Shown: positions 244 to 46,272, counted from the first letter of the stretch. The stretch: DNA of 64,000 nucleotides from Candidatus Omnitrophota bacterium (GCA_022709525.1 JAKLIQ010000001.1:338679-402678), one strand, 5' to 3'. A program made the numbers and translations. The notes: generated by a model from the sequence alone, not told the origin.

Positions 244-404
244 AAAGGGACTCGTCGCTCGGGACTAGGGACTTGTTTGGGTTCCTGGTTTTTGCGAGTC
301 CCGCACTTGATCTCTTTAAAAATTTGAAAGATTATCAAGTGCTGCACTGGTTTCTGTCAAAAATTCAATGAAAACCAGGCGAGGAACTAGTCCCGAGTCC
401 CCTT
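244..404. repeat. Palindromic repeat element of the GGGACTCG/CGAGTCCC family, composite copy. Left module 247-302, right module 378-403, AT-rich core between them.
   Basis: aaaGGGACTCGtcgctCGGGACTAGggact...gCGAGTCCC at the left and gaggaaCTAGTCCCGAGTCCCc at the right are reverse complements. The element fills the convergent fabF/lpxA intergenic region. The same modules recur at 3008, 3424, 19032, 23002, 44557 and 46181. Confidence 0.75.
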
Positions 405-409
405 TAAAA

Positions 410-1261
410 TCAGGCGAGTTCTTCTTCGATCTCGGTATCGCTGGTTGCTGTCGTGCGGTTCTTGCGGTGGGAAAGTGTTTCTACTGCGGAGCCGTCGAGA
501 ATACCGCGCTTGGACGCTTCGATGAATTCCACCATGTGTGCGACTTCCGGGCTTTTGAGGGTTTTTTTGATCTCAAGCACCGCCTGGCTTACGTTCATCC
601 CCGAACGGTAAAGCAGCTTGTAAGCTTCCTTGATCTCGCCCCGCACCTGAGGCCCGATGCCGGCGCGGCGCATTCCCACCACGTTGATCCCCTGAGCGAC
701 GGCCGGCCGGCCGCCGCAGATCACATACGGGGGGATGTCTTTATTGATCGCCGATAAAGCGCTGACCATGGCGAGCGTGCCGATGCGCGTAAATTGATGA
801 AAACCGGTCATGCCGGAAAGAAAAGCCCTGTCCTCAACAACGCAGTGGCCGGTTAAAGAAGCCTGGTTGACCATGATGATGTGATTACCGAGATGACAGT
901 TGTGGGCGATGTGGCAATAAGCCATCAGGAAATTCGAGTCGCCGATCACGGTGGAAGTCCCTTCTTTGGTACCCCGATGGATCGTAACGAATTCGCGGAT
1001 CACGTTCTTGTTGCCGATCTTGGTAAAGGTCGGCTGTCCCTGGTAGGCGAGGTCCTGAGGGGCATGTCCGATGACGGCCTGCATATGGATCTCATTATAA
1101 TTTCCGATATCGGTTCCTTGGGCAAGATAGGCTCCCGCCATGATCTTGTTGTGGGAACCGATCTTGACCCCGTCTTCAATGATCACGTTCGGGCCGATCG
1201 TATTGCCAACCCCGATCCCGACGTTTTTCCCGATAATAGCGCTGGAATGGATTTCAGACAT
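410..1261 (-). CDS. lpxA: Acyl-ACP--UDP-N-acetylglucosamine O-acyltransferase (LpxA)
   Basis: Hexapeptide-repeat left-handed beta-helix sequence throughout (MSEIHSSAIIGKNVGIGVGNTIGPNVIIEDGVKIGSHNKIMAGAYL...). Length (about 284 aa) and the C-terminal helical domain are typical of LpxA. Start set at the MSEIH Met (1261) rather than the ORF-track start at 1405. Confidence 0.8.
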   Translation of the reverse strand: MSEIHSSAIIGKNVGIGVGNTIGPNVIIEDGVKIGSHNKIMAGAYLAQGTDIGNYNEIHMQAVIGHAPQDLAYQGQPTFTKIGNKNVIREFVTIHRGTKEGTSTVIGDSNFLMAYCHIAHNCHLGNHIIMVNQASLTGHCVVEDRAFLSGMTGFHQFTRIGTLAMVSALSAINKDIPPYVICGGRPAVAQGINVVGMRRAGIGPQVRGEIKEAYKLLYRSGMNVSQAVLEIKKTLKSPEVAHMVEFIEASKRGILDGSAVETLSHRKNRTTATSDTEIEEELA

Positions 1262-1394
1262 AGGGCGGATTATATCACAACCCAGACTAGAGACTGAAGA
1301 CCAAAGACTATTTGGCAATTCCCGCATTTTTCTATAGAACAAGTCGCAGAATTTCTCCCGACTTCTTCGTCGCCGTTCAAATTTTCCCAGCGAG

Positions 1395-1605
1395 AAAATT
1401 TTCACTCGCGCGCTCGACTTCGCTCGGCCCGTGAGATAGGTTCTGAGGGCACGTCTCGGAGCCGCTTAAAGCTTGGTTCCTGCTATAGGCAGGATTTAAG
1501 CGGCGAGAGCCGAGGCGTCATGGCGCCGCTGGAGTGCCGAAAGCGCCGTTGACCGAAGAGCTTATCTCACGGGCCACCGTGCCCGCTTCGCTTCGCGAGC
1601 GCGCC
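1395..1605. other. Long imperfect inverted repeat (about 210 bp) with nested sub-hairpins. Candidate structured RNA or regulatory palindrome; strand unknown.
   Basis: gcgcgctcgacttcgctcggcccgtgagata (1398-1431) pairs with tatctcacgggcc...gcttcgcttcgcgagcgcgc (1564-1604). Inner pair gccgcttaaa (1462-1471) with tttaagcggc (1495-1504). Lies in the divergent lpxA / giant-gene intergenic region. Confidence 0.4.
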
Positions 1606-1879
1606 TCTGAAGTCTGGAGAAATTTTTCTTTACTGCCTCTACAAATACCCGGGAATTGTCAGTAAAGACCAGAACAGAAGCAGGAAATGATTCCTGTTTT
1701 GTCGCCTTATGTCGTTTGTCTCACACTCTCAGACGATCCCTATGCTATATATTGCTAAAAATCGCTATATGTCTTAATGGTTAGTTTCATTTTCACTAAG
1801 GATGACAAAAATCAGAAGTTTGAGAAGAAAATACCCCTATGAAAAAATTGGAAAAAATGGACTTTTTTTCGAACCTCTC

Positions 1880-1908
1880 TTGCTTTACCCCCATGCATCA
1901 GTTATATT
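1880..1908 (+). promoter_or_regulatory. Candidate sigma70-type promoter for the giant ORF (TTGCTT-N17-TATATT)
   Basis: ttgctt at 1880-1885, 17-nt spacer, tatatt at 1903-1908, in an AT-rich region about 90 nt upstream of the 1999 ATG. Confidence 0.3.
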
Positions 1909-1998: not shown

Positions 1999-4900
1999 AT
2001 GAATCAACGTAATCCATTCAAGACATATATTGCGGCGCTTACTGTTTTCGCTTTCTTTTTTACAAACCTCGGGATCACTCCGGACGCGTTAGCGGCGGCT
2101 TCGATGCCTACGCCTCGCAACATCTCCGGCAATCAAGCCGAAGTTTTGTTGCCCTACCAAGCCCGGCTTGATTCAAGCATCGGCTTTTCGATTCCCTCCG
2201 AACTTGGCTCCATCGAATATTTCAGGCCCGGAAAAGGCCCGGCGCTTATTCATATCCAGACCGCGCACGGGCATTACCAGGCCCAGAAACAGATCCAGCA
2301 GATCCTCCATCACCTTGATAAAAATTACGGTGTCAAAACCCTTTTCTTGGAAGGAAGCGGGTTTGAGCTGAATCCGGAGCTCATCCGTTTTTTCCCGGAC
2401 GATCATGCGCTTACTATGAAGGCCGCCGACGAGCTCACCAAACGCGCGCTTCTGAAAGGCCCTGAGCTCTTTTTGCTTGATAAGCTGTTCGAAAGCTCAC
2501 AAACAATCAAGCAAAAGACCACAGACCACAGACCGCAGACGACAGCTAAAGATTTTGGGCTCCAGTCTCCAGTCTCCAGTCTCCAGTCTTCCGAAGGCGT
2601 TCGCGCCTTCGGAATTGAGGAGCTTAAATCTTACCGCGAGAACGGCGTCGATTTTGTCAATGTCCTCGAAGCCAAACAAAAAACGCAGAATTTTCTCGCC
2701 GATATGGACATGGGGATCGAGCGTCTTTCCAGCCATTATCTTAATAAAGACCTCCGCGGTTTTCTCAAGCGCCTTGAGGCTTTTGAAAAAAATCAGATCC
2801 CGTTCGAGGATTGGCTTACCTATTTAAAAGGGGAGGCCGCCAAGCGCCTTGAGATGGACCTTTCGCAGGCCCAATATCAGATCGATTGGCCGATGATGGT
2901 CCGAATTTTCAAGATCCGCGAACTTACTTCTAAGCTGGACCGCCAGAAATTTTCAAAGGAGCGTGATGAGTTTTTAAAAACTATCAGGAAATATCTCTCC
3001 AAAAATTGGGACTCGCACCTCGGGACTCGTTCCTCGACGAGAAACCAAAACGAGTCCCTAGTCCCTAGTCCCGAGTCCCTTTATGGAGAAATCGAACGAT
3101 TACTTCGATCGGAGCAGGCAAGCGTCCAGCTTCCGGACCCTGAAACGAGTTTGCTGTTCGAAGACATGGTCCGCCAGCTTCCGGAAGATTTTGATTATGA
3201 AAAGTATCCCAACGTGCGTTATTTCATCGGCATGCTTCTTTTGCAAAGCGAACTAAAGGCGCAGATGCTCATGGAAGAAATGGATCGGTTGGTCGAAAAG
3301 ATCTCCGTCAAATTGGCCGACGCCCCGGAAGAGCAAAAACTTCTTGTCCTCTTAAAAGATTACCGCCTTCTCCAAAAACTTTTCGCGCTGGAACTTTTAC
3401 CGAAGGATTATGAAGCTATTATCGGGACTCGGGACTTGCACCTCGGGACTCGACTGAAACCCTCCAATATATGTGCTCGATTCAATGAAATCGGAAAGTG
3501 GCAAGCCGGAAACGAAAAAACGAGGAACTCAAACGAGCCCCTAGTCCCGAGTGACGAGTCCCGCGTGCGCCGGGTTGAATTTAAACATGTTGAAGATTTG
3601 GATGTATTATTCAATAAGGCGCTCGCATTCTACGCCGGCGTGAAGGAACGCGACCTCAAGATGGAGCAGCGGATCGAAGAGCGGCTCAAGGAAACGGGCG
3701 CTCAAAAAGCCGTGGTCATCACCGGCGGCTTTCATTCCCAGCCCTTTCGCGATCATTTTACGAACAAGGATTTTTCCTACGCTCTCATTTCTCCCAAATT
3801 GACCACGACTGACACAAAAGGCCGCGAAGAATATATCCAGAATACTTTACGTTTTACGCTTAAGTCGACAAAAGAGTCCGTTTATCCGGCAGATCCGGAG
3901 GTGCTCAGGCCTGAAAACCGCTATGGCTTGGATCAGGCCGCCATGCGTGCCGAGATCCGCCAAATCATCTCAGAAGTAGCCGGCCAACCTCAAACCAAAG
4001 ACCTGGAAGCCGCGCGAAAGCTTGTCGATAAAGCTTTTCAACAGGCGGCAAAAGAGGCAGGACTTCTTTACGATCCCCAAGTCGATGAAGCCGAGGCTCG
4101 TGACTTGGCCCAATGGCTTACCGTGACACCTAAAAATATTCCCTTCAGCCAGATCCTTCAGGACGTCCGCGATTGGTTTGCCGGCGCCGAAAGAAAACAA
4201 AAGTTAGAAAGCATTTCTGTTCCTACCCTTGATGTTCTTGCCACAGCCATTCCACAGGATGCCGGAAAAGGATCTGAAGCGGTTTCCCAATCGCGTGCGA
4301 CAGATCTTCAAAAAGAGCCGGAAGGGATGACCGCGCTCGACATCCTCAAAGGGATCGGCTTTGTTTTAGGCGTCAATGTCGCTTATCTAGGCGTCATTCT
4401 GATCATCGCGGCGATCCCCACCGTCATTGTGCTTACTTCAGCGGTGGCGCTTGGGGGTTATTTGGCCTACCAGGCCTTTCTTTGGGCCCAAGAAACATAC
4501 CAGAAGATCAGCGAAGGTATCCGTTCGCTTCCCCAAAATATAGCGGATAAAAAACAATCCCTGTCCCTAATGCTCAAAACGTGGAGTCAAATTTTCAAAC
4601 ATTTTTCCGCCGAGACGTCCGGCAAGTTCAATTACGACGAATTTGCGGAGCAGGTCCATAAAGAAAAGATCCGGATCGGACAACGGATCACGGTCTATCC
4701 CAAAAAAGGCGATCTGATCTCCGGCCGTTTCCATTATCTCAATAACGCGACCGGTTACTTATCCGTCTCGTCCGTTTCGACCGCGTCAGAACAGATTATC
4801 TCCCAGATCCACAAGGATGATATCGCGTTTATTGATGTCCCTCGCGATGTTACTCGCTCGGAAGCGAGAGTAGCCATAATGGTCATTAATGATGCTGTCT

Positions 4901-7900
4901 GGTTTGGGATGGATGCTGCATCGAAAGCGATTTCAATCGACGATTTAAAAGCCGCATTGCGTGAGTCTGATAGAGACTACATATCGGTGCAGCGTGACGG
5001 AGTTTGGCATTCCGTGTCTAAGGTTTTTGTCTACAGACATCTTAGATTTTATGAAAAAGACATTCAAAAAATTTCCAAAATCAAACAAAAAACGTTTGAA
5101 CCGGGAAAAAAGAAATTAATCCCTAAAAAAATTGCAGAAATTTTTCATCAGGCCCTTGCCGAACAATCAGATTTGACCGCTAAATTGATCGCAGCTATGG
5201 GAAGCGCTTATTCGCCCAAAACAGATGTCTTGAAGTCCAGGCGAGTTTCTTTGACAGAAATTTATAAAAATGCGATCGCAAAGCTCGAAAGGGAGCTCGC
5301 AAAGCTTGAGTCATCACTAACCTCTGAAGAGCGCTCTGCGGTTATAGATCGCATTGATGTTCATGTAAAAGTCGCAGGTTATGATGGCAAGCCTCGGGGA
5401 AATCCGCCTCATCGCACAGATTATAAAGTTGCTTTTGCGCTTCGTGACAAAAAAGAACCGCGCAAAACAAGTTCGATGGACGTCATCAATGAATTGTTCG
5501 CAGGTATAGATAATCATCATTATCCGGATCGTGATTTTTTATGGACGTTTTCTCAGGGTGGGCGATTGGGCGATGTTTATCGGCATGTGCGGGGGGAGCT
5601 TGCCTCGCGTCTTGAGTGGTTTGGACTGCTCCCCAACTCACTGTTCGGTTCCGATGAACGTTCTGTATATGTAAACAATGTTATCAATAACATTGAAGTA
5701 GATTTTACGATCCATGGTTTCGCATGGCCTAGCAACTACGCTTTGAATTATGAGGTATTTTTTGCACCTCGTTCCGAGGCGAGGGAATTTTCTGATGTGA
5801 AAACAACGCAAGAGCTCGGCGAATTCATGGCCCCCGTTATCGCGCAAGTCACGGAAAGGATTAAAACCTCCGAACCCTTTCAGGCGTCCAATATTTCAAA
5901 AAACTTGATCGAAGCAGGCCTCTACGACCCTTTGCCCGGCGACAAACAACACGCCTTTGAAGAATTAGGCAAGCAGGACACGCTTGATAAGACCGCTTAT
6001 TTCATGGGTCTCCAGATGTATTGGGCTATCGCCCGCGCTCCTGACCTTGAAAAAGCCAAAGAGCTTGCCGGGACTGTTGATGCCTATGCTCAATCCCGCT
6101 CCGAGGCGAGGAGTGCCGTGAATGAAGGGGCCATGCATGAAGCGGCTCGTAATATGGGTTATCAAGATTTAAAAGAGATCGCTGTTTCTCATGGCGAAAA
6201 TACCATTCCCAATATCGATGAATTTCTGGCCTATTTGAATACCTTTGAGACCGATCAAACGCAGGCGAGGGAAGAATGGTTTGTCAAATGGATTATGGAG
6301 TTCCGCATTATTGAAAAGCTAAAACAGTTCATTGGCGAACATGTCGCCAAGGGAGATGCAAAAGCTTTTGCTAAGGCGGAAGCAGCCTTTCAGGCATTGC
6401 AAAAAATCAATGCTACCGGACAAAGAATCCTGGCAAAGGCCAACCAAACGGCCCAAACGATCAGAACGCTCCAAGATCTGCATGCGATGCTTTCTGAGGC
6501 AAAAACCGCTATCTCAGAAGTTAAAGCCAGTTACCATTTGGAAGAAGAAGCTGGCCGCCAGGAATCCCGCTCGGAGATGAGGGTGAAGCGGACCGAGATG
6601 ATCCGGGACGTTTTATTTCGCGTGGGCATCGCCGTTCCTGTGGTCGCGATCGCCGGCGGTTTTGTCTATCTAGCTATTACTCACACCGCGCCCGTTTTTC
6701 TTTTTCAAGCTTCGTTGACGCTTCTGATCACCATGGGCTTTATCGCATTAGCAACGACATGGCTTAATCATCTTTTTGATCTGGTTCATCAAAAATTCCC
6801 GACTGAAAATCGAAGATTGTCAACGCCCGAAGTTTGGCTTATGGAAACGTTCGGCATCAAACTTAATTTCGGCCGTTTAAGCGGCCTTATAGGCCTGATG
6901 CTCCGGCCTTTAACTCCGTCTGTTTCGGCTCAAGATCAGAAACTTAAAAAACTGCCCGATCAAACCATGGGCGTCTGGCCATCGAATGAGGGAAAACCCC
7001 GTTTTGAAAATCACGATTTTTCCAAAAGAGCGCTACCAATCATTTTGGCAGGAGCGTTTGGCGCGACAGCTGCTTCTGCGCAACAAATCCAAATAACCTA
7101 TCCGCCAATGGACCCGCCTTATGGCGCCAACATGACACTGACTCATACCAATAAAGTCGCGCCGCAGGACGTTTGGGTCACCGCGTTCGCGTATTGGAAA
7201 ACCTCTCTTGTGGAAAGCACCGCCATTGTGACCACTAAGGTATATGATGCGCTTTTCAAGACGAACGATCCTTCTACGACAGTCTATTCAATCAAGCCGG
7301 CAATTTTTTCGAATGCTTCCCCAGTTTTTTTCTACGGCGATAAGTCAGAAACGCCCGTTGTTTCAGGTGGCAGCCTGCCTTCTACGGAAACAAATGTTCT
7401 TCCCAAAAACCCTTCCGCGGCAGACCTTTTAAAACTCCGAACAGACTTTGAACGTGAGCAAAAAGTTAAAGCGAAGGCGCTTGAAAAAAATCGTTCTGAA
7501 CTGAGGGGGAAATTTGCAAAATCGATAATCCTTGGCATTATCGCGTTAGCCGCTGGCTGCGCTACTGCTCCTGCGCCTTATGGTTATCGTCCCGCCGTTC
7601 CTTATGGCTATCCTTATAGTATCACTCCGAGCTGGAAACCGCCGGTTCCTAAAAGGATCAATATTCCAAAAGCGCCGCCCATGCCGCCGGCCGGGATCAA
7701 TATCCGGCCTCGGTCGGAGATCAGGACAACGGTCCGCATTGAAGTGCCGGAAGATGTTCCGCCGGAAAAGACCATCGCGCGATTTGTCCTCGATCAGTTG
7801 GGGAAACCGCTCAACGAGTCCGGAGACCAGGTTACTTTGGTCGATATCCTTCAAGGAAAAGCCATCCTTACCATTTTTACCAACACGGGAGAGTTTATTT

Positions 7901-10900
7901 TCGATCCCCGGGCACAGAGTCTCTCTGCGTTCAATCAGCCCGCCGGCGAGGCCTTGGCGATCGAATTCCAATTCCGTTCCGAGCTAAGAAATTTTCATGT
8001 TCAGGAAGTGAGACTCGATGTAGGCGATCTGAACAAACTTTCTGTCGAGGAAAGAGAAGAAGCTATTGCCAAAAAAATCAAAGATGGTAAGACCAGGATC
8101 TACCTTGGCACATCGATTGAGAACGATCGGTTGCAGTGGGATATGGATCGTGATATTTCCGCCGCGCATGGCCTTGTCAGGGACGCGCGAGTTTTAGCGG
8201 TCTCATTGCAGAAAATAGGAATTCCGGTCCATATGGAATTCCTTAAATTGCCCCTCGAGGTGCGGAACGATGGGACCTGGAGCTTCATCGAATATGACTA
8301 TTATTTTGCCGTTGGGGAAGATCACGCGGAAATATTAAAAAGATTTATTTTGCGTTTGCGGGCGTTGGCCAACGCTTCTACTCTGGGCGATCAAGGATAT
8401 GTAAGACTTCCCGAGGGCATTCTTACGGACGAAATAGAACGGTTTACCGAAGAATACATCGGCCGTTCGGAGACGAGAGCTCTTCCTTCCGTTGAAAAAT
8501 TGATCGGGAAAATAGAAGCGGCCTTGAAAGCCTTCGCGATTCTTTCTAAAACGATCGATAAAGGCGTGATTAATATGTGGGCTAAGGGCTTATATAAGAA
8601 CATGGAGCCTTGGGTGAGAGAGGCGTATGACGATTTGGTTAAATTGATTGGGGAAAAGGCCCAAAAAAGCGATGAACAAGGCGTTCGAGACGCCATCAAT
8701 CAGGTTGAAAAAATCTTTCTCGCCGAAAGGCGGTTCTTGAAGGCAATATTTGATTCAGTGCCAGAGGAGGAAGTATGGCTGTTCACTGAATTTATCGCAT
8801 TGATATGGGACGAACATTCCGACATAAGCAATGCTCTTGCGGACGCTTCGATGAAATTTGAGAAAAACAATTCCGCATTTTCCCTCGAGCTGTCGAACAA
8901 GGCTGATGATACCCGCCCCTCGCTTTCAGACGCGCAGGATCCGGATGATGGCCCGGCCCCGGCCAGCGCCGAACCCTCAACCGCCCCACGTTCCGAAATG
9001 AGGAGTTTACTTGTTGTACAAATGCCTACCACCATGCATCCGGAATTCGCCCTCTCAACTTTTATCATGAACGCTATGAAGGAACATAATTTAAAAAGGC
9101 AGGACGAACGGGGCAATATTTTATTTGAAATTTATGTCAATATGAGGGATGGTCAAAGAATGCTTTACACCGACTTCATTAAAAGCAAGCTTCATAGTTC
9201 CGATGAATTATCTGCGATCTATAATATTCAAAATATTGAATTTGTTTCGACTCCTTCCTTTCAGATCAACACTCCTAAAGATTTGCCGGAAGTGATTATT
9301 GCGCTCGAAAAAGACGCAGAAAAATTGAACAATTTACCGATGGCCGCCTGGAAATCATTGAAGGATGAAGTCTTAAGCCACGCTGAAATTTTCTTAAATA
9401 TCGCTGAAAATTTAGCTGGAACCGATCTTGAGCGTAAAGAGCGGCAAGTAGTTTTTTTACAGATCTTAAAAGGCATTCAAACAATGATCGCATTACCTTT
9501 TCTTGCGGATCAAGAAGACACAAAAGCCAAAAAGATGGCTCAGCGGATTACAAATCTTTGGTTCTTAATTGGCGATGAACTTGAACAAGCGCGTTTGGAC
9601 GGGATAAAGAAGGCCGCCGAAAAACGATACGGCCGGCCAATTGATGTTAAAAAATTAAAAAATGAAATGGGTTCCGCCCATGTTGCATTTGACAAAACCT
9701 CCAACACGCTAGAAGTCGAAGATCTGCCTACTGATATTTGGAGCCCTTATCCGGCGGACCGTATGGTCTCCACTTATCTTAGCCCCGCCATTCTCAGGCA
9801 TCTGCTCGAAGGCTTATCTTTATCCGTGGATGTTGCTGGCGACATGGTACTTCCTTCGAAAGTGGGTTCCATCTCCATTCAGAAATTAGAAGTTCTTATT
9901 AAAGAAGCGATTGATAAAACGGTAGAAGATAAGGCGAAAAAGGATGGAATCGGTGACCCCTCAAAAATTGAGAAGCTCAAAGCTGATCCAGTTGCTAGAT
10001 TTAACGCGCTAGTCAAATTAGAAAATGATGTTCGAAAAAGTCCGGACGAAGCCATTCGAGTCATGCACAGCCAGGGTGTTACAACGATCACCGAAGCTGT
10101 CTTTGTGGAATTTATGGGGGATTTTCTCGCGGCCATGCTGCTGTTAAAGACAGCTCAAAATTGGCAGTTTAAAAAAGAAGGGTTTGAGGCAAATCACGTA
10201 CTTCTTGAAAATATCCAGAAAACCTTGAGTCTTTCTCAGATTGGGCTCGAGGACATCGCTCTTCGGCTTGTTTCCCTTAATATTCCCCTAAATATCATCG
10301 AGCAGGTCATTCAAGGAAAGATGAACAACCTCGAAAAATTTGAGGCTCAAGGAAATGTGATCGTTATGAAGGGCGGGGTCGTAGAGGTTTTAGCTGCAGG
10401 CGGAAAAGCTGCTCGGTGGCGTTCTTCACTAGTGCCATTATTAAAAAATAAAATCATCGAGGATGACGTGGCGGCTAACCGCAATGATCTTCCGCGAGCC
10501 CTTGCGGCTTATTGGTACGGGGATTTTAGTTCCGGAGGCGGCACAGGGATATCACTCGCGATGGATAATCTTACTCATTTAGCGCAACGAGGTTACCCCG
10601 TTCGACTTGCGTATATTTTAAGCCCGCATACATGGCGTACCTTTATGGAAGCAACATACGGGCTTCTGAAAAGATATAACCAGAAAAAAGCAGTTAAAGT
10701 TCCTGTGGAAGCCATCGCCCAAAATACCAGCAGAGCTTGGGTGATCGCAGGAGACGAGATCAAGGAAGAAGATAGAAATGTGCTGGGACATGGGGATGTC
10801 ATGGGAGTGGTTTTTGCCGCCATCCAGGGATTAAAAAATGGGCAGGTTTATGCTATTCCTCGTTCAGCGGACGGACCGACAGCCCAGCTTGGACAGAAGC

Positions 10901-13900
10901 AATTTGAGAGGATTTTGGGATTTATGGCAACCAATACCGTGGCCCATGTTGGTATTGGGAATTGGAGAAATCTTGGTCAGGCAGGGGGAGGATTTGTCAC
11001 CGTCCAAGGACAGCCTGATATTGTTGATACAGCCATTCCAAAAAAAGAAAATGAAAAAAACGGATTTTTAGCTGATCGAGATATTAATCTGTTTTCAACT
11101 TTTATTAATGTTCTGAATTATGCAACCCTTCTTTACGCGATCTCCGACAATATTACAATTGAAGACCAACCGCTTATCTCATGGGATGAGGTGCAGTCTG
11201 TTTCAAGGATGGAAGAAAGTTCAATGACGATTTTGAAACAGCGTTTGGCAAAACTCAGCATTGAACAAGAGCAGGAGATCGTTCGTAATTTTATGAATCT
11301 TTTGCCTTCGGAATATGTTTTAAAGTCGGAAGATGTTCCGAAAGAGGAAGGTTCGAAAGAGTTTGTAAAGAAAGAATTTATACAATGGGAACAAATTAGC
11401 GGAATGTGGCATGGCGCAATTGAAAAAAGAATAAAGGAACGACATGCTCAAGAGAGAGTCCCCGTGCAATGGTCTAAGCCTCTAAGCTATGCAAATGCAG
11501 ATATAAGCTTAAGAGAATTTTCCATTCTTACTCAGCGAGGCGTTCAGGAGTCCGTTCCGTTATTTGCAGAGGTAAAGTCTGTTGTGGATTTATATGCTTT
11601 TCAGCCGCTTGTGCAGAAAGGAATAAAAATTTTAGCGGATAAAGATGTTTTAAGTTCAGAAGTCGGGCAGGATGCCGTGCGGCCTTCCAAGGGTATGGTT
11701 TTAAGAATCAATTCCGAGACTGCCGCGCGACAGCAACTTGCTTCTTTTGCCGCTAAGGGGGCACAGGTCTATTTGGGAAAAAATTTGGTATTTGAAAAAG
11801 GAGCTGAGCTCATTATTACCATCAAGGATTTTCATCGAGGCGTTAGCCTTAAAATAGGCGATAACGCGACATTTTATGGTGACGTTTTATTGCATCTTAA
11901 AGGAGGAGCAGTTGTTGATATTGATAGCGGCGCACAGGTTGGCAGCCCCCTTCTTTCCAGATTAAGATTAACGCTCGAAGATGGCTATTGGCTTCACATT
12001 GAAAGAGAAGCCATGCAAAAAATACTAGAAATGCTGGAACAGAAAGACAAAAAGATTGGAACTGAAAAAGTTGTTGAGCAATACAAAGATTTTGTAACCA
12101 CTAATTTTTTAAGCAAGGCTCGATTTGTTCGACTTCTCGTTGATGCTCTTGCAAATAGTAAAGAGATTAATGAGAATCTGAGAAAAAATGCTGAAGAGGC
12201 AGCTAGGGGAATTGATGTATTTGAAAAAAGGTCGGAACCAAATGCTCGCGCGGAAATGCGGACGCAGCAGGAAGAAGTGCCGGCGGAAGTGGCGCGCCTG
12301 ATCGATGGCGAGATCGTGCCGAAACTGGAGAGGCAGGCGGGCATTATCGAAAGTTTCAAGTCCGGAGAAACCAGTATTGCGAACCTGGCGGTAACCTTTG
12401 ATAAATCGCGTTTACGCGGGATAGCGGGTGAAGTCTATCAAAAGATCTCCAATGCCATTCCGCAGGGGAGCAGCGTTTCAGCCCAAAGTCTTTTTAGTTT
12501 CTTCTATTCGGCCCGTTCAGAAGACGAACATCATCTCGCGGCGCTTTATGCGGCCAATTTAGCCGAAGATAACGACCGTTTGGAGGTCCTTAATTCCGAA
12601 AGGCGGATCCTCTCCCAGGAGCCCATCAATTCAACGATCCTTGCGAGAAAAGAATTCGCCGAAGCTTACGCCAAAAAACTTTTCCTTCTCTTCTCCCACA
12701 ACGCCAAGGGGGAAAGCATTGCGTCAGCCATATACCGCGTTCTTCAGCGCTACGAAATGATAACCCCCGTGAACGTAAGCGCTCGGGACGTTGAGATCGT
12801 CGTTTTAGCTAACCTTCTTCGAAATATGCTTACACCCCAGCAGCTTGAAAAGGTAGCCTGGGACACCCTTATGGAAGAAGCGAGCGCTCTTTTCAACGAG
12901 ATCCAGCGGGTCACTTTCAATTGGAGCGATCTTTCGGCCGAAGCCAAACGCTCGGAAGTCCGGGATACGATTTATGAAGAGGTAAATGACCGGGCGAAAG
13001 AGATCGTAAATATTATTCGTGGGATCGAACAAAATGGGGAACTTAAATCTGTTGAACCCATCCAGCAACACGTGATGGCGCTGCAATCACTTTTTTTAAA
13101 CGGCAACCGGGGTGAGGATATAGCCCGGCAGTTGAGGTCGAAAGCCCCAGCCCTTTCCATCGGCGGTCTTGAACAGATCGCAGGTTATATGACCGCAGCC
13201 TGGCTTTTAGCCAGTTTTTTTGATGAACAGCTTAGAGTATGGCAAGGAAATGAGGACGTAAGACGTGATTGGCATTCCGTTTCCACTCGCGAAGTTCCCG
13301 ATCTTATAAAAGGCATCAACTACGCGTTTGTTCACGGGAAGGTTTTTAAGACTTTTGATTGGATGTCCTCCTTAAATGCAGATAGTTATGACCATGATAA
13401 AGCCATGAAATTTTTCTATAACGCGTTAGTGGAATGGGGGATCGTTGCGCCTTTTTCTTTCCAAAACGCGAAAGGCATTGTCAGGCCTGAATCCATTGTT
13501 TTTTCTCTTTTAAGTTCGGATCATATTTCCACTTTTTCTCAGAAAAAGTTCTTTGAAGAATTAAACGGGCGCTTGGCCAGTCCGTACTTTCCGTTAAAGG
13601 ATTCTGTCAAATTGTGGGTACGCACGCCTCGACCGGAAGCGCCTTACGCTTTTGAAGTGTTGACTCTAAAGACGTCATCTTTTGTTGATTCTGGAACCGA
13701 AATATCGCCGGTGAAATTTTTTGAACAAGCTATCAGTCAGTTGAAGACCAAGCAAATTAATGATATTAAAGACCTCAATGAATTGCTTGCTCGCGTGATG
13801 CGTGTTGGGATTGTCTATGCCGGCCGGTCGGAATTGAGGGAATCAGCAATTTCAAAACAGACCACAGATCAAAAATCACAGACTGTAGCTCAACTTTCAA

Positions 13901-14721: not shown

Positions 14722-14732
14722 CGATAAAGCAG

Positions 14733-14850
14733 TAGGTAGTAAGTAGTAGATGGTAGGTGGCAGACGGTGTGGCAAAGTCCGTTTTGCGCTTTGTTCACCA
14801 CATACTGCTTACCACATACTACCTACCAGTTTTTACTTCTCTCTTTCGAC
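14733..14850 (+). terminator. Long imperfect hairpin made of GTAG/CTAC repeats followed by a T-rich tract. Candidate terminator of the giant gene.
   Basis: gtaggtagtaagtagtagatggtaggtgg (14733-14760) is complementary to ccacatactgcttaccacatactacctac (14798-14827). Perfect 10-bp outer stem gtaggtagta/tactacctac. Downstream agtttttacttctctctttcg. Confidence 0.4.
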
Positions 14851-14908: not shown

Positions 14909-16126
14909 ATGTTTCCATCCGTCAGCGAACAGCTAGGGGTCTTTAAGGAGAATCTGGTCGAGCTCATTTCGGAAAAAGAGCTTGTCACGAAACTCGAAGC
15001 TTCCTGTAAGAAAAATAAACCCCTTCGCATCAAATACGGGGCCGATCCCTCGGCGCCGGATCTCCATCTCGGGCATACCGTGCCGCTCCGTAAGCTTCGT
15101 CAATTGCAGGACCTCGGGCATACGGTCGTTTTCATCATTGGTGATTTTACGGCGCGGATCGGCGATCCCTCAGGGAAATCCGAAACCCGGCCCATGCTTA
15201 CCGAAGAACAGGTCCAAGCGAACGCTAAAACCTACCAGGAACAGGTATTCCGCATCCTCGATAAGAAAAAAACCGAAGTTCGCTATAATTCCGAATGGCT
15301 CGGCGCGATGCGGCCGGAGGATTTCTTAAAGCTTACCGCCCAATACACAGTGGCCCGGATCCTCGAGCGGGATGATTTCAGCAAACGTTACAAGGCCGGT
15401 CATCCGATAGCGCTCGTCGAATTTCTTTACCCGCTGCTTCAAGGTCATGATTCCGTGGAGATCGAATCAGATGTCGAGCTCGGGGGGACGGACCAGATGT
15501 TCAACCTTTTGGTGGGGCGCGAACTCCAAAAAGCGGATGGTCAGGAGTCGCAGGTTGTTATGACGCTTCCTTTGATCGAAGGGCTGGATGGCGTTCAAAA
15601 AATGTCCAAAAGCCTCGGCAATCATATCAGCCTGAAAGATACGCCGCGCGAAATGTTCGGCAAGGTCATGTCGATCCCGGATATCATGATGGAGCGCTAT
15701 TACCGCTATACGGCGGCGCTTCCGGTTAAAGAAGTCGAGTCGATCCTTGCGGGTCTGAAAAAAGGCGAGTTTCATCCGCGGGAAATGAAAGCCAAACTTG
15801 CCGAGCGTATCGTCTCGCTTTTCCATTCCGAAAAAGAGGGAAAAGAAGCGCGCGAAGAATTCGACGAGATCTTCAAGAACAAAGGCCTGCCGGATGAAGT
15901 CCCTACCGTCAAGATCAAGGAAAAGACGATCGATATCGTGAGTCTGCTTGTCGCCGCGCAGCTTGTGACAAGCAAATCCGAAGCCCGGCGCCTCATGGAA
16001 CAGGGCGGTGTCAAGATCGGCCACGAGAAGATCACGGACCCGAAATCGGTCATTACGATCGGCGATCCTTTCGTCCTGCAATGCGGTAAGCGCAAGTTTG
16101 CCCGCATTGAAAGTTATAGTGCTTAA
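14909..16126 (+). CDS. tyrS: Tyrosine--tRNA ligase
   Basis: Class I HIGH motif ([11 protein letters not shown]) and KMSKS motif (KMSKSLGN). 405 aa with a C-terminal S4-like region. Confidence 0.9.
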
Positions 16127-16163
16127 TTCATGATATTTACGCTAAGCGCCCTTTGAGCGGTCC

Positions 16164-17920: not shown

Positions 17921-19335
17921 TGAAACAATTTTTCCTGAAATTCCAACTGCTCTTCGAGGCGGTGATCCTTTTGGCGACCCTCACGCTCGTTTACATGGTG
18001 ATCCAGCCGTTCCATGAGCGCTGGGATCTGACGCGCGAAAAGGTCTACTCGCTTCCACGGGCGACGACCGGCGTATTGCGGGACTTGAAGGACCGCAGGA
18101 TCGATCTCCTTCTTTTTTATCAGCAGGATGATCTTTCCAAGAAAGGCCTTGAGGTCTTTTTGAAAGAATGCCAGCGCCATCACCCGGAATTCCACTACGA
18201 TTTTTATGACCCGAACCGGCGGCCCCAGCTCGCCCGCAAATTCAATGTGACCGATGTCAAAACAGTGATCTTCCGCTCGGGCGGCCACGAAGAGCGCCTC
18301 GTTGCGCCAACCGAAGAGGACTTTACGAACGCTTTTCTGCGCCTTCTCCATCCCAAGGACCTCGATGTTTGTTTCGTGACGGGACACGGCGAAGTGCCGC
18401 TTGCCGAAGAAGGCACCGGAGGATATTCCCGTTTTCAGAAAACGCTTCAGGGTTATAACGCAAAGATCCATTCGATCGTGCTCACGCGGGACCACGTGCC
18501 CGATGTTTGCCAGGTGGTCGTGGTGGGCGGGCCGCGTTGGGACCTGACCGCCGAGGAATTCTCTGACCTCGACAAGGCGTTCCAGAAGGGGAAAGGCGTT
18601 TTTCTTTTGGTCGATCCTATGGACCCGGGCGCCGGCGCGGCTTTTGTCGAATTTGCCAGGCGGTACGGTGTTGCGCTGGGGCAGAACGTCATCGTCGACA
18701 AAATGAGCCGCATGGTCGGCGGTGATTTTTTAATGCCGCTTGTCAGCCAGTACCTGGAAACCCACCCGACCGGGAAAAACATGAAACAGGCGACTTTTTT
18801 TCCGCTCGTGCGTACGGTCCAACCTTCCGTGGATACAGTGGAGGGCCTTGAAGTCGCTCCTCTCGCTTTGACCGGGGACGGAAGTTGGGCCGAAACGGAT
18901 CTTCAGGCGCTCGAAGACGGCAATTCCACTTTTGATATCAAGACCGATATCGCCGGCCCTTTGCCTGTGGCGGTCGCCATACAACAGACAACAGACATCA
19001 GACCACAGACCACAGACAAAACCAGAACACAAGTCCCGAGTCCCGAGGAACGAGTCCCGCCGCAAGGAAGAATGATCATCGTCGGTGACGGTGATTTTTT
19101 AACGAACGGCTATCTGGACATTTCAGGAAATAAGGAATTCGGTTTGAACATGATCCGTTGGCTCGCCAATGACGACCGGTTTATGGACGTCAGGCGCCCG
19201 GAACTCCGCTTCAAGCCACTCCTGCTCGATGTGCCGCGCCGCACGCAGCTTATCGTGATCCTCCTGGGCGTTTACCCGCTCACTTTTTTCATTTTGGGCG
19301 GGATTTATCTTATTGTGCGGATCAGGACTTCATGA
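17920..19335 (+). CDS. GldG-family ABC-transporter auxiliary component (N- and C-terminal membrane anchors), carrying an in-frame repeat insertion
   Basis: Start MKQFFLKF is coupled to the permease stop. N-terminal helix AVILLATLTLVYMVI and C-terminal helix LIVILLGVYPLTFFILGGIYLIV. This architecture and the operon context are typical of GldG. The ORF-track start at 17761 overlaps the permease and is rejected. Confidence 0.65.
   Translation: MKQFFLKFQLLFEAVILLATLTLVYMVIQPFHERWDLTREKVYSLPRATTGVLRDLKDRRIDLLLFYQQDDLSKKGLEVFLKECQRHHPEFHYDFYDPNRRPQLARKFNVTDVKTVIFRSGGHEERLVAPTEEDFTNAFLRLLHPKDLDVCFVTGHGEVPLAEEGTGGYSRFQKTLQGYNAKIHSIVLTRDHVPDVCQVVVVGGPRWDLTAEEFSDLDKAFQKGKGVFLLVDPMDPGAGAAFVEFARRYGVALGQNVIVDKMSRMVGGDFLMPLVSQYLETHPTGKNMKQATFFPLVRTVQPSVDTVEGLEVAPLALTGDGSWAETDLQALEDGNSTFDIKTDIAGPLPVAVAIQQTTDIRPQTTDKTRTQVPSPEERVPPQGRMIIVGDGDFLTNGYLDISGNKEFGLNMIRWLANDDRFMDVRRPELRFKPLLLDVPRRTQLIVILLGVYPLTFFILGGIYLIVRIRTS
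18975..19058. repeat. CAGACMA heptamer run plus half of the GGGACTCG/CGAGTCCC element, inserted in frame in the gldG-like gene
   Basis: caacagacaacagacatcagaccacagaccacagac...caAGTCCCGAGTCCCGAGgaaCGAGTCCCg. Translated QQTTDIRPQTTDKTRTQVPSPEERVPP. Confidence 0.8.
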
Positions 19336-22996: not shown

Positions 22997-23001
22997 CAAA
23001 A

Positions 23002-23082
23002 GGGACTCGGGACTAGTTCCTCGGGACTCGAAAACGAGGAACCAAACGAGTCCCTAGTCCCGAGGGGCGAGTCCCGGTTTTT
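23002..23082. repeat. GGGACTCG/CGAGTCCC nested-palindrome element, compact intergenic copy with a trailing T-run. Likely acts as terminator after the PNP gene.
   Basis: GGGACTCGGGACTAGttcctcGGGACTCGaaaacgaggaaccaaaCGAGTCCCTAGTCCCGAGgggCGAGTCCCggttttt. Confidence 0.8.
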
Positions 23083-43121: not shown

Positions 43122-43128
43122 ACCGCAA

Positions 43129-43214: not shown

Positions 43215-43220
43215 AGTAAG

Positions 43221-43390: not shown

Positions 43391-44551
43391 ATGTCGGTTT
43401 TTATCGGAAAAGATCGTAAAGCACGCAGGGCTTATGGTTTTGATGAGATCGCATTAGTGCCGGGGGATATCACCATCAATCCCGAAGAGGTTGATATTAA
43501 AATGCCTTTGGGGGATATGACGCTCCCGATCCCGTTCCTGGCTTCGGCGATGGACGGTGTCGTGGATCCCAAGTTCGCGATCGCGATGGGGAAGCTGGGC
43601 GGTCTGGCCGTCCTGAACCTCGAGGGGATCTATACCCGCTACGATGATTATGAAACGATCCTTGAGGAGATCTCCAAGGCGACGCCGGAAAAGGCGACGC
43701 AGCTTGTCCAGAAGCTTTACGTCAAGCCCATCAATGAAAAACTGATCGCTAAACGCGTACGGGAGATCAAGAAAGCAAAAGTCCTTTGCGCCGTGAGCGC
43801 GATCCCGCAGCGCGCCGAACGATTCGGAAAGATCGTCGAAGAAGCGGGCGCGGATATCTTTGTGGTGCAATCCACCGTCACCACCGTGCGTCATATCGCA
43901 AAAGCCTACCAGGTCGTTGATTTCAAGAAACTCTGCAGGAAGATGAAGATCCCTGTGATCCTCGGCAATTGTGTGACTTATAAAGTCGCGCTCGAACTCG
44001 CTGAAACGGGTTGCGCGGGGCTTCTTGTCGGCATCGGACCAGGCTCCGCCTGCACGACACGCGGCGTGCTCGGGATCGGCGTTCCGCAGGTGACCGCGAT
44101 CGCGGATTGCGCCGCGGCGCGCGAGTTCTATTACAAAAAGACCGGTAAATATGTTTCTATCATTGCCGACGGCGGCATGTCCACGGGCGGGGATATCTGC
44201 AAATCCATCGCAAGCGGCGCGGACGGCGTCATGGTCGGTTCGGCGTTCGCCAGGACGAAAGAAGCCCCCGGCCGCGGATTCCATTGGGGGATGGCGACGC
44301 CGCACGCAAACTTGCCGCGCGGCACAAGAATTCACGTTGGAACCACCGGGACGCTGGAGGAGATCCTCTACGGGCCCGCGCGTCTTGACGACGGGACGCA
44401 GAACCTTGTCGGCGCGCTTCGTACTTCGATGGGAAATGTCGGTGCCAAGAATATCCGGGAGATGCAGCTGACCGAGATCGTGATCGCGCCGGCCATCAAG
44501 ACGGAAGGAAAACTCTTCCAATCCGCGCAAAAGCTCGGAATGTGTAAATAA
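43391..44551 (+). CDS. IMP dehydrogenase/GMP reductase-family protein lacking CBS domains (GuaB3-like)
   Basis: About 387 aa TIM-barrel, IMPDH-like (PIPFLASAMDGVVDPKFAIAMGKLGGLAVL...GIGPGSACTTRGVLGIGVPQVTAIADC...ADGGMSTGGDICKSIASGADGVMVGS), with no CBS pair. RBS aaggagga precedes the ATG at 43391. Genomic context with guaA. Confidence 0.75.
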   Translation: MSVFIGKDRKARRAYGFDEIALVPGDITINPEEVDIKMPLGDMTLPIPFLASAMDGVVDPKFAIAMGKLGGLAVLNLEGIYTRYDDYETILEEISKATPEKATQLVQKLYVKPINEKLIAKRVREIKKAKVLCAVSAIPQRAERFGKIVEEAGADIFVVQSTVTTVRHIAKAYQVVDFKKLCRKMKIPVILGNCVTYKVALELAETGCAGLLVGIGPGSACTTRGVLGIGVPQVTAIADCAAAREFYYKKTGKYVSIIADGGMSTGGDICKSIASGADGVMVGSAFARTKEAPGRGFHWGMATPHANLPRGTRIHVGTTGTLEEILYGPARLDDGTQNLVGALRTSMGNVGAKNIREMQLTEIVIAPAIKTEGKLFQSAQKLGMCK

Positions 44552-44556
44552 ACCGC

Positions 44557-44620
44557 GGGACTCGTTCCTCGGGACTCGTCTCTTGTTTTAACGAGTCCCC
44601 AGTCCCAAGTCCCCGTTTTT
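44557..44620. repeat. GGGACTCG/CGAGTCCC element, intergenic copy plus T-run after the guaB3-like gene
   Basis: GGGACTCGttcctcGGGACTCGtctcttgttttaaCGAGTCCCcAGTCCCaAGTCCCcgttttt. Confidence 0.75.
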
Positions 44621-44628
44621 GGAGTTTT

Positions 44629-46170
44629 ATGGATCAAACCATCATTGTTCTTGATTTCGGGTCGCAGTACACGCAGCTGATCGCGCGGCGTGTGCGCGAA
44701 AACAAAGTTTTCTCCAAGGTCTATCCTTTCAGCGTGCCTTTTGACAAAGTCATGGCCGAAAAACCGAAAGGGATCATCTTTTCGGGTTCTCCGGCAAATG
44801 TCTACGGCAAAGGCGCTCCGATCCCCGATAAACGTTTTCTTCATTGCGGCGTTCCGATCCTCGGGATCTGCTACGGGATGCAGCTTCTTTCTCACAAGCT
44901 CGGCGGCCGCGTCCACAAATCCAAAAAACGCGAATATGGGTTCGCAAAACTTCACGTTTCCAAGCGCGAAAGCCCGCTTTTCCGCGGGATCCCGAAGACG
45001 ATCACTTGCTGGATGAGCCACGGGGATAAACTCGACAGGATCCCCCAAGGGTTCGAGCGGCTGGCTTATACGGAAAACGCGCCTTTCGCGGCTATGGGCG
45101 ATCCCGCGCGCGGGATCTATGCGATCCAATTCCATGCCGAGGTCGTTCATACCGAACTAGGTTCCAGGATCCTGAAGAACTTCCTGGTCGGGGTCTGCGG
45201 CTGCCGGCAGAACTGGACGCCAAAATCCTTCATCAAGGAAACCGTTAAAAAGATCCGCCAACAGGTCGGCCATGACCGCGTGGTGCTCGGGCTTTCAGGC
45301 GGCGTCGATTCCTCGGTCGCGGCCGTTTTGATCCACAAAGCCATCGGTAAGAAACTCAACTGTATTTTTGTCGATAACGGCCTGCTGCGTCTTAAAGAGG
45401 CCGATAAGGTTGAAAAAACATTCCGCGGTCATTTTAAAATGAATCTCAAAGTCGTTGATGCCGAAAAGATCTTTTTAAGCCGCTTAAAAGGCGTGATCGA
45501 TCCGGAGAAAAAACGCAAGATCATCGGCAAGACCTTCATCGATGTGTTCCAAAAAGAGGCGAACCGCTTGGGCAAGGTGCCGTTCCTCGCGCAGGGGACG
45601 CTTTATCCGGACGTGATCGAATCGGTTTCTTATTTCGGCGGCCCGACCAGCACGATCAAAAGCCATCACAACGTCGGCGGGCTCCCGAAGGATATGAAAT
45701 TCAAACTCGTCGAACCGCTTAAAGAGCTTTTTAAAGATGAGGTTCGCGCGGTAGGTTACGCGCTCGGGATCGACAAAGACATCGTGGGCCGGCAGCCGTT
45801 CCCGGGACCCGGCCTCGCGGTCCGTATTTTAGGCGAGGTCCGCAAGGACCGCTGCGATCTTCTACGCAAAGCCGACTGGATCGTGATCGATGAGATCAAA
45901 AAGGCGGGTTATTACGACAAGGTTTGGCAATCCTTCGCGGTCCTGCTTCCGATCCAAAGCGTCGGCGTGATGGGCGATGAGCGCACTTATGAGAACGCCG
46001 TCGCGGTGCGCGCCGTGACGTCTTTAGACGGCATGACCGCCGACTGGGCCAAATTGCCGCCGGAACTTTTGGGCCGCATCTCGAATCGCATCATCAACGA
46101 AGTGCGCGGCATCAACCGCGTCTGTTACGATATTTCCAGCAAACCCCCGGCTACCATTGAGTGGGAGTAA
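44629..46170 (+). CDS. guaA: GMP synthase (glutamine-hydrolysing)
   Basis: GATase1 domain (ILGICYGMQLL, catalytic Cys) plus the ATP-pyrophosphatase domain SGGVDSSVAAVL and the C-terminal dimerisation region. 513 aa. Confidence 0.92.
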   Translation: MDQTIIVLDFGSQYTQLIARRVRENKVFSKVYPFSVPFDKVMAEKPKGIIFSGSPANVYGKGAPIPDKRFLHCGVPILGICYGMQLLSHKLGGRVHKSKKREYGFAKLHVSKRESPLFRGIPKTITCWMSHGDKLDRIPQGFERLAYTENAPFAAMGDPARGIYAIQFHAEVVHTELGSRILKNFLVGVCGCRQNWTPKSFIKETVKKIRQQVGHDRVVLGLSGGVDSSVAAVLIHKAIGKKLNCIFVDNGLLRLKEADKVEKTFRGHFKMNLKVVDAEKIFLSRLKGVIDPEKKRKIIGKTFIDVFQKEANRLGKVPFLAQGTLYPDVIESVSYFGGPTSTIKSHHNVGGLPKDMKFKLVEPLKELFKDEVRAVGYALGIDKDIVGRQPFPGPGLAVRILGEVRKDRCDLLRKADWIVIDEIKKAGYYDKVWQSFAVLLPIQSVGVMGDERTYENAVAVRAVTSLDGMTADWAKLPPELLGRISNRIINEVRGINRVCYDISSKPPATIEWE

Positions 46171-46180
46171 AACCAAAAAA

Positions 46181-46272
46181 CGGGACTTGGGACCAGGGAC
46201 TCGTTTCTCGTTCTTTTTTGGTTTTTTGTAATCATTTAACGAGTCCCGAGGTACGAGCTGCGAGTCCCGAGC
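46181..46272. repeat. GGGACTCG/CGAGTCCC element, intergenic copy immediately upstream of the dnaE start
   Basis: cGGGACTtGGGACcaGGGACTCGtttctcgttcttttttggttttttgtaatcatttaaCGAGTCCCGAGgtacgagctgCGAGTCCCGAGc ends 1 nt before the dnaE ATG. Confidence 0.75.

Follow-up and report, generated by a model that had tools for sequence, protein, structure and literature searches.

A family of heptanucleotide-built palindromic elements at gene ends and inside genes of a Candidatus Omnitrophota bacterium

Seven loci in a 64,000-nt stretch of the genome of a Candidatus Omnitrophota bacterium (GCA_022709525.1, JAKLIQ010000001.1:338679-402678; hereafter the window, with positions counted from its first nucleotide) are copies and fragments of one dispersed palindromic family, whose arms are tandem arrays of 7-nt units such as GGGACTC. 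By its sequence traits, this heptad-modular family is part of a known class, that of the GGGANTN repeats of Xanthomonas and the short tandemly repeated repetitive (STRR) sequences of cyanobacteria. We consider it rather probable that these copies and fragments have a role as RNA hairpins, spread between loci and change their arms unit by unit. As RNA, the element would form a long, stable hairpin, as predicted by folding, ending or protecting transcripts at the 3′ ends of genes and at operon junctions, by factor-independent termination where a T-run is present and elsewhere by 3′-end protection or RNase III-type processing. As DNA, it would spread between loci by copying or gene conversion, with no encoded transposase nearby, and its arm length would be altered by the gain or loss of whole 7-nt units.

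On both strands of the window, GGGACTCG occurs 22 times, against 2.66 ± 1.64 (maximum 8) in dinucleotide-preserving shuffles, and GGGACTAG occurs seven times against 0.63 expected. Their matches are confined to the seven clusters that an initial annotation of the window had proposed as a dispersed repeat family of at least seven copies. That annotation had named a k-mer skew as the alternative; the restriction of the 8-mers to arrays, together with a centre shared among copies, indicates that there is no such skew. Same-strand spacings of up to 30 nt between GGGAC motifs are 7 or 14 nt without exception, and those between GTCCC motifs are 7, 14 or 21 nt, also without exception. Tandem Repeats Finder reports period-7 arrays in the window, and the self-similarity of these arrays at lags 7 and 14 is enriched over that at all other lags. 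A profile built from 15 family members and run on the window recovers exactly the reported loci and no others, resolving their orientation, so that enrichment, spacing and profile search all bear out the family. Its copies and fragments, with one unrelated hairpin lying among them, are the following:

242–304, plus strand: complete element in the convergent fabF/lpxA spacer (profile E = 4e-15), with 5′ arm GGGACTC GTCGCTC GGGACTA GGGACTT, centre GTTTGGGTTCCTGGTTTTT (275–293, one mismatch) and a single 3′ unit, CGAGTCCC
303–345, no strand assigned: near-perfect hairpin GCACTTGAT...ATCAAGTGC between this element and the next solo arm, outside the family
377–404, plus strand: solo 3′ arm CGAGGAA CTAGTCC CGAGTCCCC, followed by TTTAAAA
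3000–3084, minus strand: complete element with reverse-oriented centre, in frame in a giant open reading frame (ORF) of 4240 aa (profile E = 4e-20)
3419–3454, plus strand: solo 5′ arm GGGACTC GGGACTT GCACCTC GGGACTC, in frame in the giant ORF, 5′ of the conserved LKPS segment
3513–3563, minus strand: reverse-oriented centre AAAAACGAGGAACTCAAAC and 3′ arm CGAGCCC CTAGTCC CGAGTGA CGAGTCC, in frame in the giant ORF, 3′ of the conserved RFNEI
19027–19058, plus strand: solo 3′ arm CAAGTCC CGAGTCC CGAGGAA CGAGTCC, in frame in a GldG-like gene
22998–23081, minus strand: complete element filling the PNP/IleRS spacer, with an A-run upstream and TTTTT downstream
44546–44622, plus strand: complete, short-centred element in the IMPDH-like/guaA spacer, followed by GTTTTTGGAGTTTT
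46171–46272, plus strand: complete, long-centred element in the guaA/dnaE spacer, adjoining the dnaE ATG and without T-run

Three of these loci had been annotated with different limits. The stretch 247–403, taken as one copy, does hold a complete element, but also the unrelated hairpin at 303–345, which may be the original terminator of the fabF/lpxA spacer, and a separate solo 3′ arm. Positions 3424–3562 contain family arms and a family centre, but their 63–90 nt "core" is mostly ancestral coding sequence. The long cores of these two loci are therefore not parts of an element, one being an independent hairpin and the other the conserved LKPSxxxxRF segment. Finally, 19032–19058 is a genuine family 3′ arm, but its 5′ neighbour is an array of another type, CAGACNA (18975–19022).

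The 5′ arm consists of two to four heptamers, in which GGGACTC is interleaved with NNNCTCG variants (parsed in register, for example, GGGACTC GGGACTA GTTCCTC GGGACTC), and the 3′ arm of one to four complementary modules (CGAGTCC, CTAGTCC and CGAGGNN; for example CGAGTCC CTAGTCC CGAGGGG CGAGTCC), each unit combining a constant CTCG/CGAG part with a variable triplet. The centre is T-rich, asymmetric and 14–37 nt long, with consensus GTTTGGGTTCCTCGTTTTT(A), and is found in both orientations. An A-run upstream and a T-run downstream often flank the elements and lengthen the palindrome, and element size is about 55–100 nt. We aligned 15 copies from seven genomes (the window and six Omnitrophota-type metagenome-assembled genomes, MAGs), adding an in-gene copy from a metagenome contig. 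The resulting consensus is A-rich / GGGACTCG GGACTMG GGACTCG / GTTTnGGTTCCTCGTTTTTA / CGAGTCC CGAGnnn CGAGTCn CGAGTCCC / T-rich, and the arm positions are invariant among the fifteen family copies. The initial description of two or three forward modules, a core and two or three reverse modules, forming long perfect hairpins, needs correction on both points: arms do stand on either side of a core, but they are tandem heptamer arrays of one to four units and some of them are solitary; and folding does exceed that of shuffled sequences, but the arms of the window copies are 72–86% complementary and the hairpins are imperfect.

The argument for copying between loci rests first on the centre. This non-periodic sequence of ~19 nt (GTTTGGGTTCCTCGTTTTT) is present in seven copies from five genomes with at most four mismatches (a single one in five of the seven), in both orientations, and an asymmetric centre common to different loci and species in both orientations points to copying from locus to locus. 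A pattern scan of one genome per species with GGGACTCG-N6-13-GGGACTCG-N8-38-CGAGTCCC identified at least 115 stretches from many phyla (loci fetched from other genomes and metagenomes are labelled L001 and so on). The Omnitrophota matches listed, from six MAGs and one further genome of similar GC content, show the same interleaved arm design as the window and, by sequence, at least six other Omnitrophota MAGs carry the family. The G-rich arm is the 5′ one in all window copies, and the non-ascertained flanks of the 115 loci listed contain nine G-then-C pairs and no C-then-G pair, an order that matches the "always convergent" pairs of Xanthomonas (PMC4692102).

Orthologous sites in related genomes point in the same direction. 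Each of the six genomes compared has a hairpin in the PNP-IleRS spacer (69–92 nt), which in four of them is clearly built of heptamers; the families involved are GGGACTC in the window, GTACNNN in L120 and L122, CACG/CGTG in L124 and an NNNNAAC type in L121; the hairpin of L123 is related to that of L121 (common CCCGTGAWTCAT), with unclear 7-nt periodicity. In each compared genome, its own hairpin family recurs at its other sites. Families that are common within a genome and swapped between genomes at orthologous sites suggest copying or conversion between loci.

Both observations bear on the possibility of a purely local origin, by which 7-nt slippage on an existing terminator and fold-back copying of a second arm would generate each hairpin with no transfer between loci. 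Slippage does occur at the level of the unit, as indicated by one extra 7-nt GAGTTGA unit in L152 (1903–1950) with respect to L150 (1961–2001), alongside an identical PF05635 protein. Moreover, a study quoted at second hand reports that heptanucleotide repeats outnumber all other long simple repeats of bacteria and attributes them to slippage (Mrazek 2007, cited in PMC4679880), and the arms flank pre-existing sequence at 247–403 and 3424–3562. AGACCAC-type arrays also appear in unrelated metagenomes (GC 42% to 66%), showing that a given unit order can come from a common degenerate set. Against this, a local origin does not account for a non-periodic, asymmetric 19-nt centre at non-orthologous loci of five genomes and in both orientations, and it predicts the opposite of families that are common within a genome and yet different at orthologous sites; we thus regard it as improbable. 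The near-identity of AGACCAC-AGACCGC-AGACGAY between the giant ORF of the window and the GldG gene of L122 was rejected as proof of copying, because a metagenome scan with a 20-mer of this array hit 22 contigs with GC contents from 42% to 66%, in all of which the arrays derive from one shared degenerate unit set. As that array order recurs in unrelated metagenomes, the argument for copying rests on the non-periodic centre instead.

For the intergenic copies, location and folding suggest a role in the transcript. Four of those in the window begin 5–16 nt past a stop codon and, in other Omnitrophota loci, eight of twelve copies are in short spacers, mostly between co-directional genes, with a minority inside genes. 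Among about 12 window spacers of at least 40 nt downstream of a stop codon, five or six contain a heptamer hairpin, and the remaining ones have ordinary terminators with a GC stem and a T-run. Folded as RNA, the intergenic copies are more stable than shuffled sequences (z = −2.9 to −4.8), with a minimum free energy (MFE) of −28 to −64 kcal/mol; values for the PNP-IleRS copy (96 nt folded) are −43.7 kcal/mol and z −4.84, and the region around the solo arm at 19032–19058 folds no better than shuffles (z = −0.66). A stable stem, of this or another heptamer family, is followed by a T-run at 23076, 44615 and 14827, by a weak one at 403 and by none at 46272 and 57512. The intergenic copies had been annotated as lying directly after genes and ending in T-runs: they are indeed just past stop codons, several with A-run and T-run flanks resembling those of bidirectional terminators, but the weak run at 403 and its lack at 46272 do not fit. 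A consensus terminator scan, blind to loops longer than 8 nt, gave counts near background, and an Rfam search of the window produced only RNase P RNA and tRNA-Met above the gathering threshold, the elements receiving chance-level miRNA matches.

The guaA-dnaE element provides a measure of conservation. The window lies on a 551-kb JGI metagenome contig, and its GldG protein is listed at NCBI under Candidatus Omnitrophota. Genes guaA and dnaE are syntenic in the Omnitrophota MAG UR.bin134 (L080), with 86% and 80% aa identity, respectively, and an element is present there at the orthologous site, its arm units conserved and its centre diverged; at 80–86% aa identity, unconstrained sequence is probably no longer alignable. 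Post-stop position, co-directional spacers, A-run and T-run flanks, arm order and arm conservation together suggest a hairpin that acts at the transcript level, likely as a terminator or as an RNA 3′-end hairpin.

The copies inside the giant ORF and the GldG gene are, from sequence comparison with homologs, in-frame insertions. The giant ORF (1999–14721, 4240 aa) has no Pfam match on record for its JGI-called product, and conservation in Omnitrophota proteins covers the N-terminal ~700 aa (HIQTAHG...ITGGFH motifs). When this N-terminal domain was aligned with 11 homologs, the inserts were missing or different in all of them. The element at 3000–3084 encodes WDSHLGTRSSTRNQNESLVPSPESL, at a site whose length differs among homologs, and at 3424–3562 the 5′ arm is inserted before, and the centre and 3′ arm after, the conserved LKPSxxxxRF segment, the sequence between the arms being ancestral coding sequence. 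In the GldG protein, the site lies between PVAVAxEK and GRMIxVGDGDF, where 36 homologs carry inserts of 0 to about 55 aa. Several GldG homologs hold there GTRDSGLGTR and SPEERVP, which are translated (GGGACTC)n and (GAGTCCC)n. The L120 element at this site is complete, with GGGACTC arms and the family centre; the window gene has a 3′ arm orthologous to that of the L120 element, its 5′ arm replaced by the CAGACNA array. Other genomes present AGACCAC plus GTGGACC (L122), CCACG/CGTGG (L124) or GGATGGC/GCCATCC (L147 and L148) at the same site, which is empty in L121, so that this loop is filled in frame by at least five heptamer families. As read from its sequence, (GGGACTC)n lacks stop codons in all six frames, which partly explains why it is tolerated inside genes. 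The insert peptide is unchanged in a GldG homolog that is 94% identical, and a strain 99.3% identical over 7 kb shows no change of unit number or length in the arrays, indicating that these are not hypermutable.

Several facts weigh against the interpretation as RNA hairpins that spread between loci and change by whole units. The putative RNA function is read from position and shape, the arms are just 72–86% complementary and pair in shifted registers, and neither the guaA-dnaE copy, which adjoins the next start codon, nor the PNP-IleRS hairpins of related species have T-runs, indicating that simple termination is not the whole story. The arms at 3424–3562 flank ancestral coding sequence, an arrangement that insertion of a contiguous element in one step does not explain, and the stability of the arrays at 99.3% and 94% identity does not suggest frequent unit change. 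The scanned window ORFs and the fetched loci yielded no mobilising enzyme and, among the compared genomes, no pair of filled and empty sites is close enough to define the ends of an insertion.

A different view of the origin of the hairpins comes from genes of family PF05635, annotated as "23S rRNA intervening sequence protein", an Avd-like four-helix bundle. In L147 (2084–2543) and L148 (9575–10000), a PF05635 gene lies precisely at the junction of the ABC permease and GldG genes, bracketed by a pair of inverted heptamer arrays (AGTCCGGAGTTTGAAGTAAGGAGTTCGGAGT and GCTCCGAACTCCAAACTCATAACTCCGGACT); in L124, a single arm stands at the corresponding junction. Brackets of GGAGTTN/NAACTCC type surround PF05635 homologs in an Omnitrophota MAG (L149), in Planctomycetota (L153) and in a further lineage (L150–152), and other heptamer units bracket them on plasmids of Nostoc (L155, L156) and Geminocystis (L160). 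In Picosynechococcus (L159) the brackets have an 8-nt period, and in Azospirillum (L162) a PF05635 gene lies inside the 23S rRNA, with a heptamer array downstream. Many PF05635 homologs have ends encoded by the arrays, for instance N-terminal SSEFGV and C-terminal TPNSELITPN.

This association suggests, at the level of sequence, that the short hairpins could be ORF-less relatives of intervening-sequence-like PF05635 cassettes, being what remains or spreads without the gene. In addition to the inverted brackets in Omnitrophota, Planctomycetota and cyanobacterial plasmids, the array-encoded extensions and the solo arm of L124, another hairpin of the window, at 57425–57512, has motifs in common with the L148 arms. 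Nevertheless, no PF05635 gene with GGGACTC arms was seen, neither the scanned window ORFs nor the 115 GGGACTCG loci listed contain such a gene, and the flanks of PF05635 genes in L154 and L158 contain no arrays; besides, the sample is small and has no control on the flanks of other small genes. As an account of the short hairpins, the cassette is in our opinion rather unlikely. A broader proposal, which we advance only tentatively, is that the heptamer-array hairpins of the window, and perhaps the STRR and heptamer repeats of cyanobacteria, Bacteroidota and others, might represent an intervening-sequence-like cassette without its ORF. This cassette would be widespread and move horizontally, its long form being the PF05635 gene between inverted 7-nt arrays, and some process would overwrite gene-end hairpins and permissive loops inside genes with the array family active in the genome concerned. 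A limited literature search found no publication on the association of PF05635 with heptamer arrays. If true, the cassette reading would offer a mechanistic handle on a repeat class that has been unexplained for 35 years. This Omnitrophota clade constitutes an unusually clean comparative system: with the same spacers and the same loop occupied by different families, and with a conserved centre, hairpin "overwriting" and the possible PF05635 link become directly testable.

The initial annotation had favoured a mobile miniature element with terminal inverted repeats and a variable core. A classical miniature inverted-repeat transposable element (MITE) would be non-autonomous, have terminal inverted repeats and a variable-length core of its own, and be moved by cut-and-paste by a transposase encoded elsewhere. 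Dispersed copies with a common centre in both orientations would fit, as would the fact that a heptamer hairpin in the tyrS-ABC spacer is not shared by all close strains and the occurrence of GGGACTCG-armed families with conserved loops in Gemmatimonadaceae (12 loci, six per orientation) and Amycolatopsis (10 loci). However, the outer ends differ by whole 7-nt units, the arms of the 15 aligned copies varying from one to four units with no fixed ends; the long "cores" are host sequence; and there are solo arms at 377–404, 3419–3454 and 19027–19058. No target-site duplication was apparent by eye in the printed flanks of the 15 aligned copies, which contain inverted A- and T-runs, although no dedicated search was made. 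Transposase domains were likewise lacking from the window ORFs that were scanned and from the genes called in six related loci, and a Pfam scan of most window ORFs (the giant ORF up to residue 734, and all others but three at 57615–58022 and 60095–64000) found only housekeeping genes and no transposase, integrase or reverse transcriptase. A phmmer search for the transposases associated with repetitive extragenic palindromic (REP) sequences (RAYT), using an Escherichia coli sequence as a weak query, had no match in the ORFs of about 1.1 Mb of fetched partial-genome loci. The family lacks the fixed terminal inverted repeats of MITEs, as it does the unique palindrome with GTAG head of REP sequences and REPINs, and a MITE seems to us quite unlikely.

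The G-quadruplex regulatory function proposed for the GGGANTN repeats of Xanthomonas and Nostoc is very improbable here and was rejected for its G-tract counts and for the G-free sister families, since, although the units have GGG tracts 4 nt apart and such oligonucleotides form G-quadruplexes in vitro (PMC4692102), the interruption by NNNCTCG units leaves two or three GGG tracts in most window arms (only 247–283 reaches four, with loops of 8–11 nt), an adjacent complementary C-rich arm that would compete through duplex formation is nearly always present, and sister families (GTAC, CACG, GGTAGTA, AGAC) appear in the same role without G-tracts. CRISPR-like and protein-coding-repeat readings were set aside because the arrays are too short and inverted.

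Among known systems, the STRR sequences, reportedly described from heterocystous cyanobacteria by Mazel et al. in 1990, resemble the window family in having several heptamer families per genome, mostly intergenic; unlike STRR, mostly described as direct arrays, the window family is dominated by the inverted-pair hairpin. Rickettsia palindromic elements (RPE) are said, after Ogata et al. in 2000, to be 100–150 nt long and to sit in frame in protein genes, the added peptide being tolerated. They share with the window family the in-frame palindromic insertion in a conserved gene, with homologs that lack it, and differ from it in that the window family is heptamer-modular and belongs to a different lineage. 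The intervening sequences of 23S rRNA also form a long stem from inverted flanks inside a functional gene or transcript, their long forms containing a four-helix-bundle ORF, whereas the window elements are in mRNA spacers and ORFs and contain no ORF; the likeness is one of analogy and limited motif sharing.

Roles in termination and mRNA stabilisation have been proposed for REP sequences, bacterial interspersed mosaic elements (BIME) and REPINs. As in these elements of Proteobacteria (PMC3116915 for REPINs), the window family comprises imperfect palindromes that are short and dispersed, stand at the 3′ ends of genes and in operons, and are specific in family within genomes. It differs from REP and REPIN in having no GTAG head, arms made of tandem heptamers instead of a unique palindrome, solo arms, unit-wise ends and no RAYT match (with the weak query and partial genomes mentioned above).

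The nearest likeness in the literature is to the class already known from Xanthomonas and cyanobacteria (PMC4692102). The GGGANTN/GGGAATC repeats of Xanthomonas (Rehm et al. 2015, PMC4692102) have 2–26 units, with four preferred, and form 70–75 convergent inverted pairs per genome; they lie within 50 bp of stop codons, are transcribed and keep their gene context between species with changes of length. The window family shares with them 7-nt-period tandem units, typically two to four, paired as convergent stem-loops and mainly intergenic near stop codons, and a gene context that is kept between species with changes of length. Its major units GGGACTC, GGGACTA and GGGACTT match the consensus GGGANTN, and the interleaved GTTCCTC and GCACCTC do not. 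It differs in phylum and unit, in the NNNCTCG interleaving, which leaves fewer than four G-tracts and makes G-quadruplex formation unlikely, in its conserved asymmetric centre and in the in-frame copies in conserved genes.

Several heptad-modular hairpin families exist in this clade, and several in the window itself, where the arrays and hairpins of other families are:

1284–1310, plus strand: solitary AGACTNN array of about four units, inside the longest ORF call for lpxA (410–1405, minus strand)
2516–2589, plus strand: AGACCAC x4, spacer and GTCTCCA x4, in frame in the giant ORF
14727–14826, plus strand: GGTAGTA/TACTACC hairpin directly past the giant ORF stop codon, then TTTTT (z −3.46)
18975–19022, plus strand: CAGACNA array of about 5–6 units, standing in for the 5′ arm in the GldG-like gene and encoding QQTTDIRPQTTDKTRT
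57425–57512, plus strand: AGTYCNG/CNGRACT hairpin with a 14-nt period, upstream of tRNA-Met (z −3.65)

The complementarity of the arrays at 2516–2589 is limited to the 4-nt cores AGAC/GTCT, and they are inside a stretch of ~36 aa missing from all 11 homologs. The AGACTNN array is probably just upstream of the true lpxA start (about 1261), to judge from the 283-aa LpxA of L121. The motifs that hairpin 57425–57512 has in common with the arms around the PF05635 gene of L148 are AGTCCGGAG and CTCATAACTCCG. The tRNA-Met (CAT) at 57518–57592 and the RNase P RNA class A (bacterial) at 58061–58454 are ordinary matches. In practical terms, these elements interrupt the assembly of metagenomes, cause ORF calls to be fused or lengthened and introduce low-complexity peptides into annotated proteins; two separate short-read assemblies (L002 and L004) stop at one and the same base, window position 23029, within the PNP-IleRS element.

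Upstream of the giant ORF there is a 593-nt non-coding region (1406–1998) with an inverted repeat (1426–1451 and 1550–1575, 81% complementary) and no match in Rfam; from its sequence, it could be a leader or a structured RNA. At the same position upstream of tyrS, relatives have giant ORFs that measure 5358, 7823 and 10,496 aa and differ in domain content, and L121 lacks one. The tyrS-ABC spacer of L002 has a GGTAGGT/ACCTACT hairpin (139–264) in place of the last tyrS codons, and that of the window (16114–16160) an unrelated 37-nt spacer; downstream identity is 99.3%, and the tyrS 3′ ends are just 91% identical, which suggests an imported segment. The spacer between GldG and DUF4340 genes contains a conserved unit of ~82 nt starting TCATGATCCTCA...GGGCGTCATG (L122, 11635–11879; L120, 2126–2285; L147, 4044–4214; L148, 11420–11498), of which L122 has three tandem copies; the GldG and DUF4340 genes of the window overlap.

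Finally, some arrays from other organisms deserve mention. Metagenome contigs L125–L146 (GC 42% to 66%) contain AGACCAC/AGACGAC/GGACGAC arrays, some of them very long, and certain AGACCAC-type arrays among them adjoin a second array of GCGATAC type. In actinomycetes (L005, L006, L031, L043, L081, L086, L090, L103, L109 and L117, and Kutzneria/Pseudonocardia loci), GTGGGACTCGCC repeats form inverted arrays with a 21-nt period (3 x 7) and are a distinct family with the same 8-mer. Twelve Gemmatimonadaceae MAGs (L014, L020, L025, L040, L051, L073, L077, L079, L101, L104, L110 and L111) have a GGGACTCG-armed family with loop GAGATCTCGACCGGTCGCC, six copies being forward and six reverse.

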